A stretch of 64,000 nucleotides of DNA from Candidatus Nomurabacteria bacterium (GTDB lineage: Bacteria > Patescibacteriota > Minisyncoccia > Phycocordibacterales > UBA9973): positions 207,665 through 271,664 of the forward strand of contig CAWHSF010000003.1 in assembly GCA_963832025.1 (NCBI GenBank). The letters run 5' to 3'. Each line of letters opens with the position of its first letter. The first letter of the stretch is position 1. A program made the translations under genes and the position numbers. Positions 28,837-30,142 of this stretch are shown here, in pieces. The notes beneath the pieces were generated by a model. It had not been told where the DNA came from, made no database searches, and worked only from the letters and a program-made list of their open reading frames with translations.

Positions 28837-30142
28837 AAATTAGAAACTTTTAAAAAATTAAAACTGCCAGATAAACCAGGAGTTTATTTTTTTCTTAAGG
28901 GGAAAGAAATTTTATATGTCGGCAAAGCGACTTCTTTGAAAGACAGAGTGAAGAGCTATTTCGGTAAAGATTTAATCGAAGCGAGGGGGCCAATAATTTT
29001 AGACATGGTCTTCAAGGCAAATAAAATAGAATGGCAAACGACTGATAGTGTTTTGGAGGCGCTAATTTTGGAGGCCAACCTAATCAAAAAATATCAACCG
29101 AAACACAACACAGATGGTAAGTCTGATAAAAGTTTTAATTATGTTTGTGTTACAAAAGAAAAACTACCTAAAGTTGTTTTAATTAGAGGAAAGGAACTTT
29201 CCGAAAAGAAGAATTTTGATAGTTCCTCCCTTCTCCGAGTACGGAGTGGGTCCCACACTAGTCAAAATTCTTCTTTTCGGAAAGTTTTCGGGCCTTTTCC
29301 AAACAGTACTCAACTTCGGGAAGCATTAAACATAGTTAGAAAAATATTCCCATTTTTGGATGATAAAAGTAAAAATTATCTTGAATTTTACCGACAGATA
29401 AACTTAGTACCGGATTTAAACGACACAAAACTTTATAAACAAAATATAAAAAATATAATTTTATTTTTTTCTGGCAAGAAGCTACAAATTTTCAGAAATC
29501 TAAAGAAGGAAATGAACACTTATGCCAAGGCTCATGAATTTGAAAAAGCAGGGGAGATAAAAAGACAGCTTTTTACCTTGCAGCATATCAATGATGTGGC
29601 ATTGATAAAAAGTGAAAAGTCTGGGTTAGAAAATTTTTCCGGATTACTCCAGCCTTCGGCCGGAACCTTCCCCGTTCAAAATTTTCTAATCCAGACTTTT
29701 CGCATCGAAGCCTATGACATTGCCCACCTAGGCGGTAAAAACATGGTGGGAGTGATGGTGGTGGTGGAAGACGGGGAAGTAAATAAAAACGAATATAGAA
29801 AATTCAAGAATCAGAACTCAAGATAATTCTAATGATACGGGAGCGCTCACGGAAGTGCTGGAAAGAAGGCTAGCCCATGCGGAATGGCCTTTTCCCTCCC
29901 TCATTGTGGTAGATGGAAGCACGGCGCAGATAAATGCCACAAAAAAAGTTTTATCAAGGGTTCACCTTGATATACAAATAGTTTCAGTTTTAAAAGACGA
30001 ACATCACAAACCAAAAGCTATTATGGGAGATGAAAAAATTGGGCTAAAATATAAGAAAGAAATTTTACTCGCCAACAGCGAAGCGCATAGGTTCGCGATT
30101 ACTTATCATAAAAAGATGCGTAATAAAAACTTTTTAAAATGA
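28834..30142 (+). CDS. uvrC: excinuclease ABC subunit C, interrupted by a +1 frame change near 29806-29811
   Basis: GIY-YIG N-terminus (GVYFF...ILYVGKA); UVR domain (EFEKAGEIKRQL). ORFs 28834-29826 and 29855-30142 join as ...EYRKFKIRTQDNSNDTGALTEVLERRL. Confidence 0.85.
29196..29285 (+). repeat. family B palindrome-ended repeat (90 bp), in-frame inside uvrC
   Basis: 22-bp perfect TIR ACTTTCCGAAAAGAAGAATTTT / AAAATTCTTCTTTTCGGAAAGT; encodes ...SEKKNFDSSSLLRVRSGSHTSQNSSFRK... Confidence 0.8.
29614..29701 (+). repeat. family C palindrome-ended repeat (related to B), in-frame inside uvrC
   Basis: 23-bp TIR GAAAAGTCTGGGTTAGAAAATTT / AAATTTTCTAATCCAGACTTTTC (1 mismatch); encodes EKSGLENFSGLLQPSAGTFPVQNFLIQTF. 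Confidence 0.75.

Follow-up and report, generated by a model that had tools for sequence, protein, structure and literature searches.

A palindrome in uvrC and its counterpart in uvrA

The 64-kb stretch of DNA analyzed here (hereafter the window), which makes up ~15% of its source contig, belongs to a bacterium of the Patescibacteria/Paceibacterota, judging from its UvrC homologues, and carries the DNA-repair genes polA, uvrB, uvrA and uvrC, the open reading frames (ORFs) of the three uvr genes having been identified with NCBIfam. Within uvrC, at a position that we call site 1, lies a palindrome of 25 + 42 + 25 nt, whose arms are 100% complementary in a repeat search of the window; it occupies the linker between ..IRGK and FGPFP.. 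of the host protein and is read in frame as ELSEKKNFDSSSLLRVRSGSHTSQNSSFRKV. A second, related palindrome is found in uvrA. Both are in frame and free of stop codons, and the junction peptides of the inserts, as read from the sequence, are NFDSSSLLR and SGSHTSQNSSFR. The central result of this work is that the uvrC palindrome is a copy of a family of small hairpin elements, here termed family B, which sits in frame inside DNA-repair genes of Patescibacteria (Table 1).

An earlier note on this DNA had described the uvrC unit as bearing 22-bp perfect inverted termini: the palindrome is indeed perfect and those termini lie inside its arms, but the arms themselves extend to 25 nt. Between them, the core presents a CCC/GGG helix around a 5-bp stem, CTCCG/CGGAG, which is closed by an invariant AGTA loop, while the innermost AATTTT of the left arm is common to all copies of the family (alignment columns 19-23 are invariant). 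The predicted fold of the uvrC copy has an energy of -47.8 kcal/mol with z = -9.3, and that of the uvrA copy has z = -4.5. At the level of the entire window, five hairpins with arms of at least 20 nt are observed as against 0.17 in shuffles, and the core pattern has two matches where 0.00 are expected.

The 90-nt units of the uvrA and uvrC copies are identical at 59/90 positions, and the repeat search aligns the two with 79% identity over 70 nt; the earlier hand count of 53/69 identical positions in the core comes to 54/69 on recounting. Their inner hairpins (CCTGG-AGTA-CTAGG in uvrA, where one pair is G·U; CTCCG-AGTA-CGGAG in uvrC) differ on both sides at three of the five pairs with the pairing kept, just as had been noticed before. 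The arms of the uvrA copy are 22 nt long with a single A·C mismatch; when its 22 arm pairs are set against those of uvrC, eight are found to be changed on both sides and still Watson-Crick, and 12 are identical.

Table 1. Positions in the window of the palindromic elements, their parts and the two host genes of family B.
Feature	Position	Strand	Basis and remarks
Whole palindrome, family-B copy, uvrC site 1	29195..29286	+	Repeat search; covariance model, 102 bits
Left (upstream) arm, uvrC site 1	29195..29219	+	Outer part, to ..AAG AAG AAT (29214), resembles native codons (G)KEL.EKKN
Conserved core (hairpin tip), uvrC site 1	29220..29261	+	Covariation and conservation
CCC/GGG of uvrC core	29228-29230 / 29248-29250
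5-bp stem CTCCG/CGGAG of uvrC core	29233-29237 / 29242-29246
AGTA loop of uvrC core	29238-29241
Inner stem-loop, uvrC copy	29233-29246
Right (downstream) arm, uvrC site 1	29262..29286	+	Reverse complement of left arm; encodes QNSSFRKV
Second family-B copy, uvrA	26509..26600	+	Arms 26509-26530 / 26579-26600; covariance model, 89 bits
90-nt unit of uvrA copy	26510-26599
Inner stem-loop, uvrA copy	26547-26560
Family-A element, uvrC site 2	29610..29705	+	Before RIEAYDIAH; 26-28-nt arms, 40-nt core TCCGGATTACTCCAGCCTTCGGCCGGAACCTTCCCCGTTC; family-B model, 47 bits
Family-C element, uvrB	24736..24833	+	18-nt arms with 2 mismatches, 62-nt core; right arm adjoins native ..(E)PDFLT, left arm the copy
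Family-C element, polA	20917..21022	-	22-nt arms with 4 mismatches; core opposite to uvrB copy
Host gene uvrC, short Patescibacteria form	28834..30142	+	NCBIfam; two ORFs, 28834-29826 and 29855-30142
Host gene uvrA	26060..28760	+	NCBIfam; N-terminal 70 codons in another frame

Core, arms and site occupancy in related genomes

Related DNA was drawn from uvrC-centred metagenome stretches and from contigs of close homologues, ~0.95 Mb in total (its loci bear L-numbers below), and an nhmmer search yielded further family-B copies from Paceibacterota contigs. With the window included, there are 15 clear copies on 13 contigs, distributed over three sites: uvrC site 1 has nine, of which one is reversed; uvrC site 2, immediately ahead of RIEAYDIAH, has four; and uvrA has two. 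All 15 align without gaps in a 90-nt frame. In the window itself, an unfiltered covariance-model search recovers only the two family-B copies and the related family-A element. The earlier note had suggested collecting more copies and quantifying their covariation, and had named non-compensatory changes or a lack of further copies as findings that would speak against its idea; the 13 additional copies are there, and their changes are compensatory.

The structure that we tested comprises the outer arms, the CCC/GGG helix and the 5-bp inner stem, amounting to 30 pairs in 15 copies or 450 cells, which count sequences, several of them orthologues, rather than independent events. Of these stem cells 92.0% are paired as compared with 72.9% in shuffles (0/500), changes on both sides are seen at 19 of the 30 pairs (95 cells), and pairing falls to 42-60% when the partner is slid by one to three columns. 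A pairing symmetric about the AGTA loop was considered and rejected: the core is asymmetric, and the arms required an offset. RNAalifold independently recovers the same structure, together with a further short helix between columns 27-30 and 64-67 that co-varies as well. In the inner stem the covariation is at column pairs 41/52 (CG 13, UA 2), 42/51 (CG 8, UA 6, GC 1) and 43/50 (CG 9, GC 5, GU 1), from which it follows that at least four double substitutions are needed. G·U pairs account for merely 3/450 cells, and the internal mismatches of the arms, counted by hand, are six A·C, two G·T and one G·A.

The variation of the core is concentrated at its co-varying stem positions. Otherwise, T31, TT38-39, the AGTA loop, C59-60, C63 and the CCC/GGG pairs are invariant and C61 is nearly so; read along the sequence, the invariant stretches are CCCTTC, the GAGTAC loop region and GGG.CC. 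Co-varying stems together with invariant loop and bulge bases make the inner hairpin look like the outcome of a constraint on a structured nucleic acid. Likewise, core identity between orthologues (0.72, 0.90 and 0.95) exceeds that of the well-conserved flanking coding sequence (0.65, 0.76 and 0.86) and, by a wide margin, that of third codon positions (0.51, 0.52 and 0.60); the core is not decaying. Searches against Rfam at gathering score returned only tRNAs in the window, and at E<=1 only sub-threshold matches of generic microRNA-precursor hairpins to the uvrA copy. An intrinsic terminator was also considered and rejected: by eye, no consistent T-run follows the stem.

The peptide encoded by the insert presents a different picture from its DNA. 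In an alignment of 120 UvrC homologues, about half are without an insert at site 1 (..RGKNLKPELFDKIFGP..) and the remainder have 20-35 extra residues at exactly the same place; the insert peptides of these homologues match the same DNA, in some cases with the frame unchanged, in others with a shifted frame or with the orientation reversed. Indeed, related cores at the same site are read in relatives in the second frame (NFSSLRPSLEYKGGTLGKLKIER) and in reverse (NFYARGSQPVLGEGRRTKNL). The entropy of the core at codon positions 1, 2 and 3 is 0.58, 0.51 and 0.57 bits. Since the variability is equal at the three codon positions, and since other frames and orientations are used, the peptide is not the conserved object. 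What does hold for every copy is a length that is a multiple of three and a stop-free reading in the frame of the host. In the AlphaFold model of the window UvrC, the inserts at residues 126-145 and 254-290 have confidence scores (pLDDT) <50 and no secondary structure and lie between well-modelled elements. The earlier proposal that selection or a generating mechanism acts on the hairpin and not on the peptide is borne out by the compensatory changes in the 13 further copies and by the equal variability of the core at the three codon positions.

As for the outer arms, their comparison with uninterrupted orthologous sites, likewise suggested earlier, revealed one arm to be made up of the host's native coding sequence and the other to be an inverted copy of it. 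The case is clear at uvrC site 2, where the left arm encodes A(L/I)LKQEN and insert-free orthologues have, in the corresponding position, ALLKNEN.., ALLKSEK.. and ALLKQEN..; the reverse complement of this arm forms the right one, which reads as the unrelated NFLVSGA. In uvrA, the left arm ..(Q)GFGKKN matches the native ..ALGKN, ..NLEKKN and ..SLSKN of insert-free UvrA, and native sequence resumes after the right arm at K..KKVMGVEW. At uvrC site 1, the left arm GKEL.EKKN resembles the insert-free L005 (GKELQEKKN..) and L095 (GKNLKNEKN|VFGP), with the insertion lying after ..AAG AAT and the native sequence resuming at (V)FGP. The roles are reversed at the family-C site of uvrB, where it is the downstream arm that borders on native EPDFLT and the copy lies upstream, so that a rule by which the upstream arm is always native had to be given up. 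No palindrome was found at the empty orthologous sites. The net gain in length is about one core plus one arm: 21 residues at uvrC site 1, 25 in uvrA and 15-19 at uvrC site 2.

The two arms of a copy change together. For example, in the native arm at uvrC site 2 a Leu-Leu pair is TTA TTG in L092 and, by synonymous change, CTC CTG in L095; the opposite arm mirrors this with CAATAA and CAGGAG, respectively, turning the amino acids IM into GA. More generally, mismatch between the arms within a copy (0.14, 0.02 and 0.04) is below the divergence of orthologous left arms (0.55, 0.21 and 0.07), which means that the arms evolve in concert. In the native arm codon position 2 is the least variable (0.82 as against 1.28 and 1.45), and the copied arm has the mirror image of this pattern. 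As the arm variability by codon position fits a coding constraint on the left arm only, we infer that the right arm at uvrC site 1 is the templated copy. Between sites, arm columns 5-18 and 77-90 differ by 58%, and only the inner AATTT/AAATT is invariant. The outermost arms had earlier been described as completely different between the two window copies yet self-complementary in each: they are self-complementary, but their difference is that of two host flanks and not of two subfamilies, and the innermost AATTT...AAATT is common to all copies. Between orthologous copies the arms even differ in length, from 21 to 25 nt at uvrC site 2. A generating, i.e., templating, mechanism would explain the outer arms, and the near-absence of G·U pairs, the A·C-heavy mismatches and the coding pattern in the native arm with its mirror in the copy point to copying at the DNA level rather than to pair-by-pair selection at the RNA level. 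The two-layer build thereby separates covariation that stems from DNA copying, in the outer arms, from covariation consistent with structural constraint, in the inner stem.

A general scan for hairpins brought to light further families of the same build, in which the core is GC-rich and conserved and the arms, 15-32 nt long, are specific to the locus. The core of family A measures 40 nt and has a stem of the CCAGCC-TTCG type, and that of family C measures 62-66 nt; families D, F and B' are also found in coding sequence, and family E is intergenic. Sites are re-used by different families. Thus, the uvrA site holds family B in the window and in L092; family A, with the same core as at uvrC site 2, in L004, L084, L088, L089, L091 and L095; a reversed family A in L087; family F in L090 and L011; and family C, by peptide similarity, in L006. 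It is empty in L005, L009, L081, L093 and L094. Furthermore, the core can be flipped inside conserved arms, as in L087 (uvrA site), in L006 (uvrC site 1) and in the polA copy of the window relative to that of uvrB; these two family-C cores are 85% complementary over 75 nt and lie in opposite orientations, both in frame. Strict inheritance of cores by site was rejected: the core at uvrC site 1 of L087 is identical at 44/45 positions to that at uvrC site 2 of L092, a difference at 1/45 positions. Homogenization of cores within a genome was rejected too, as the two family-B cores of the window differ at 13/45 positions and the orthologous uvrA cores at 2/45.

Known systems, template switching and the alternatives

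Short palindromes in coding sequence have been described before. The closest in character are the Rickettsia palindromic elements (RPEs; Ogata et al. 2000), in-frame palindromic repeats in housekeeping genes, in which the whole element including its ends is the repeat and each family has a conserved peptide (PMC10969869), and whose repeat identity decays with time (PMC6649704). The likeness lies in short hairpin-folding palindromes of several families, inserted in frame into housekeeping genes that are unrelated to one another, in a bacterium with a reduced genome, apparently translated and placed where the protein tolerates a loop. The differences are in the host phylum, here Patescibacteria, and in size, here 80-98 bp as against about 100-150 bp. 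Beyond these, in the present elements only a tip of ~45 nt repeats, the stem is made from host codons and near-perfect, the peptide is unconserved and the sites are re-used by families. By this build, the element is not an RPE.

The palindromes in coding genes of Nematomorpha mitochondria (PMC6649704) share with ours perfect inverted repeats in coding sequence, with both arms translated, and arms that differ between lineages and are perfect within each, which suggests active conversion rather than pair-by-pair selection; template switching has been proposed for them (PMC6649704). Those and other template-switch palindromes are, however, without a shared structured core and form no repeat family, whereas here a core stands at every tip and moves between sites and genomes. 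A further likeness is offered by the byps of Magnusiomyces mitochondria (cited in PMC6649704), which are mobile palindromic hairpins in protein-coding genes; there, the ribosome skips the byp and the frame need not hold, unlike the copies here, which are all in frame and open. As one arm consists of native conserved host codons, removal of the hairpin would delete host residues. No description of palindromic or in-frame elements in Patescibacteria or the Candidate Phyla Radiation (CPR) was found in the open-access literature.

An account of these elements has to accommodate what is observed, namely the two-layer anatomy, the covariation, a native and a copied arm, the concerted evolution of the arms, the re-use of sites, the inversion of cores and the independence from frame, and in these descriptive claims our confidence is high. 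The reading that we prefer, with a probability of about 0.55, is that of an RPE-like selfish hairpin existing as several families, the stem of which would be built and kept perfect by templated copying (template switching of the polymerase in replication) and the core of which would be constrained as nucleic acid. Here, the first layer would be the core of ~42-48 nt, an irregular stem-loop with a short A/T run at its boundaries (..AATTT[T] / [A]AAATT..), and it is this layer that would be copied from site to site and from genome to genome. The second would be the outer stem of 17-28 nt per arm, which would stay behind when the element moves and consist of host codons and an inverted copy of them formed upon insertion or later. 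Our confidence that template switching is the engine is moderate. The arms are near-perfect and diverge between lineages, their pairs are Watson-Crick and not wobble, and the spacers are inverted; template switching is known to homogenize the arms of inverted repeats, to expand them and to invert spacers (PMC8604942, PMC13100816).

Briefly, the following mechanism is proposed. The insertion points lie after A-rich ..AAR AAT codons, and the junction of families B and A, AAAATTTT, is self-complementary. A growing strand whose end falls within an A-rich Lys/Glu/Asn stretch (..GAAAAT) would switch by microhomology to another copy of the element and copy its core; by virtue of the self-complementarity of AAAATTTT, the strand could then snap back on itself, copy its own upstream flank and thereafter return to the original template. 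Later rounds of intramolecular template switching would keep the arms perfect, lengthen or shorten them and occasionally flip the core. The survivors would be those insertions that keep the frame open in tolerant linkers, and the insert would accordingly be translated as a disordered loop. A dedicated transposase probably plays no part. On this reading, the elements are a concrete case, at the level of sequence, in which proteins of streamlined CPR genomes gain loops of 20-30 residues from selfish hairpin DNA. In practical terms, such inserts inflate and split gene calls and confound marker-gene alignments of Patescibacteria.

Several points weigh against this account. Template switching is deduced from the form of the sequences rather than directly observed here, and a dedicated enzyme could be encoded beyond the 64-kb window on the 430-kb source contig. 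Templating alone leaves the conserved loop and bulge bases and the above-background conservation of the core unexplained, and the conserved unpaired bases imply recognition by some protein or RNA or a function at the level of the host. Families C, D and F are without the AAAATTTT junction needed for the snap-back. At the three family-B sites it is the upstream arm that is native and at the uvrB family-C site the downstream one, so that a direction set by the nascent sense strand is not general; and the host linker at uvrC site 1 is variable, making the assignment of the native arm less clean there than at uvrC site 2 and in uvrA. Finally, all the related DNA was sampled around uvrC, and the copy counts include orthologues and are non-independent.

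More tentatively, as a possibility that we would not yet bet on, the element might be transposase-free selfish DNA, in which a structured seed of ~45 nt spreads by template switching during replication or repair, takes its stem from the adjoining host codons and re-seeds palindromic hot spots. The seeds are concentrated in uvrA, uvrB, uvrC and polA, genes with products that process abnormal DNA structures, and could then damp the very machinery that would remove them, or serve the host as a repair-gene regulon. Such a copy-choice mechanism would also mean that mobile DNA can spread without a transposase, and the elements would be a natural record of quasipalindrome template switching in bacteria.

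The concentration of the elements in uvrABC and polA is unexpected, and it bears on an alternative to the selfish reading: the hairpins could be functional cis-elements, formed in mRNA, in single-stranded DNA or as cruciforms in polA, uvrB, uvrA and uvrC, which are bound or cut by a host factor (e.g., RNase III acting on the 20-28-bp stem), tune or co-regulate these genes and are kept by selection on the host. The polA-uvrB-uvrA-uvrC genes contain the five coding elements of the window (C reversed, C, B, B and A), and its other ~54 kb contains none; three family-E copies are intergenic, between 30.6 and 36.7 kb, and no other coding or intergenic copies of the searched families were found in the window. 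In the fetched DNA, in a sample centred on uvrC, hairpins with GC-rich loops number 27 in 118 kb of UvrC, 5 in 24 kb of PolA, 12 in 139 kb of UvrA and 6 in 75 kb of UvrB, as compared with 7 in 448 kb of other coding sequence at the same loci; the 23 in 237 kb of UvrA, UvrB and PolA combined differ from the rest with p = 3e-6, and the repair genes are 5-14x denser. This enrichment could reflect the tolerant linkers of large multidomain proteins, local copying within one gene cluster or a link to DNA repair. In favor of the cis-element there are, moreover, the invariant unpaired bases with co-varying stems, the usual signature of a recognized structure, and orthologous cores that stand above flanking coding sequence and far above third codon positions. 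Yet the same sites are filled interchangeably by no fewer than six families of unrelated cores (A, B, B', C, D and F), those sites are empty in many close relatives, the cores occur in both orientations, which alters the RNA sequence, G·U pairs are nearly absent from the stems and no Rfam family matches. With the enrichment itself open to the explanations given above in a uvrC-centred sample, we regard such a regulatory role as unlikely.

Quite doubtful is the notion of an ordinary MITE (miniature inverted-repeat transposable element), in which the arms would be terminal inverted repeats, the element would be moved in trans by an insertion-sequence-encoded or Y1/HUH-type transposase, and the differences between copies would mark subfamilies. 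The elements are short, palindromic and multi-copy and belong to several coexisting families, near-identical cores are found at different sites in different genomes, and, in common with MITEs and with REPs (repetitive extragenic palindromes) and REPINs, which go with RAYT or IS200/IS605-type transposases (PMC3184786, PMC3733652), they are small hairpin-formers whose conserved stem-loop could be the recognition hairpin of a transposase on single-stranded DNA. In classical MITEs, however, the terminal inverted repeats are conserved and flanked by direct duplications, whereas here the outer 10-20 nt of the arms are locus-specific and are native host codons of insert-free orthologues rather than element termini. 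The length of the arms also varies between orthologous copies (21-25 nt at uvrC site 2). Outside the palindrome there is no direct repeat; the innermost AAAATTTT-like A/T segment is both a direct and an inverted repeat and could, on the MITE hypothesis, be a palindromic target duplication. REPs for their part are extragenic, and their hairpins of 20-40 nt bear a tag, GTAG or CGTC, at the foot (PMC3184786, PMC3733652); families A, B and C are intragenic, and neither tag was seen by eye at the foot of their stems. No transposase, reverse transcriptase or HUH ORF was identified by Pfam among 40 ORFs of the window, a scan outside which some ORFs lie, among them polA and those at 30-37 kb, the uvrA, uvrB and uvrC ORFs having been checked with NCBIfam; viral contigs searched with the family-B and family-A core patterns gave no matches.

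The core pattern had three unrelated chance matches among representative genome contigs (Actinobacteria, an archaeon and Synergistales), a set from which the source species is apparently missing, and the flank L001 is unlike the element. Among other host proteins, an alignment search with the doubled 49-aa peptide gave 26 candidates, none scoring, and an X-padded 25-aa query gave one candidate; a 33-aa two-sequence profile gave two marginal matches (E = 9e-5 and 1e-3) among protein representatives.

That the inserted peptide is itself a selected, adaptive loop of UvrA and UvrC, with the palindrome a by-product, seems highly improbable. It is true that the 14 forward copies of family B share one frame and a similar peptide, NF.(R/G)SSLP.V..G.HT..N, but the core varies to the same degree at codon positions 1, 2 and 3, relatives have NFSSLRPSLEYKGGTLGKLKIER or NFYARGSQPVLGEGRRTKNL in that place, an insert is missing from about half of the homologues, the copied arm alters its amino acids freely to follow the other arm, and the structure model shows the insert as a coil of low confidence. 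That the similarity is due to chance, or that the inverted duplications were created as an artefact of assembly or amplification, can be practically dismissed, for although a single-A frameshift in each of the window uvrA and uvrC suggests some sequencing error, the same cores are in frame in independent JGI, ENA and NCBI assemblies and the statistics are far beyond chance.

Further hairpins and the genomic neighborhood

The two frameshifts just mentioned each trace to one additional base. In uvrC, one extra A near 29809-29810 (AAGAATCAG as against AAGATC..) splits the gene into its two ORFs, and in uvrA one extra A at 26273-26275 (CTTAAATCAAATG as against the expected CTTAATCAAATG) shifts the frame of the N-terminal part. 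These may be either assembly indel errors or real pseudogenization of both excision-repair genes.

A mini-hairpin at uvrC site 2 of L023 (1716-1762) has arms of only 12 nt (GAAAATTTTTCT / AGAAAAATTTTC) around a loop of 23 nt; it could represent an element that is short or has degraded, or one whose arms have yet to be extended. The intergenic family-E copies of the window are at 30612-30729, ~32673-32725 (minus strand) and 36562-36654 and again have locus-specific arms; their inner hairpin changes compensatorily between copies (GGCAAAGCTTTGCC versus CCGCAAGCTTGCGG). In relatives, family-E copies follow S20, ABC-transporter or fpg genes, and these hairpins may be terminators. Another hairpin of the window, at 57294-57363 with 22-nt arms and a 26-nt loop, overlaps the start of a RuvX-like ORF (57329-57823) and matches none of the searched core families. 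In addition, an 86-nt intergenic repeat occurs at 10939-11024 and 28752-28837 with 73% identity and a hairpin, CCCGTACTAAATTTT...AAAATTTTAGTACCGGG; each time, after dnaN and before uvrC, it ends at the start codon of the next gene.

The window also contains dnaA and dnaN (8286-10936), and the cumulative GC skew is lowest near 18-20 kb and climbs from there to the right, a profile that places the element-rich polA-uvrC cluster near the replication origin, in the same orientation as the leading strand. In two related loci, a bAvd + RVT_1 pair resembling a diversity-generating retroelement lies about 6-9 kb downstream of uvrC (L087, 19099-20459; L090, 17320-18721), and in L089 an RVT_1 domain without an Avd match is found at 19478-20458; the scanned ORFs of the window have no reverse transcriptase.

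Elsewhere in the window, Rfam gives a match below threshold (38 bits as against a gathering score of 78) to the cspA thermoregulator at 36668-37000 on the minus strand, upstream of what is likely a cold-shock-domain gene, going by synteny with relatives in which such a gene comes after ABC-transporter genes. A protein of 1310 aa with DUF11 and Ig-like domains, encoded at 45035-48967 on the minus strand, is made of 243-nt and 261-nt tandem repeats that are 89-100% identical. Lastly, a perfect tandem duplication of 157 nt at 60927-61240 begins within the 3' end of a tRNA-Arg(tct) gene (60869-60941), each unit carrying a 35-nt hairpin, GGGCACAAAAATAAGCGGAGCATATTTTTGTGCCC.

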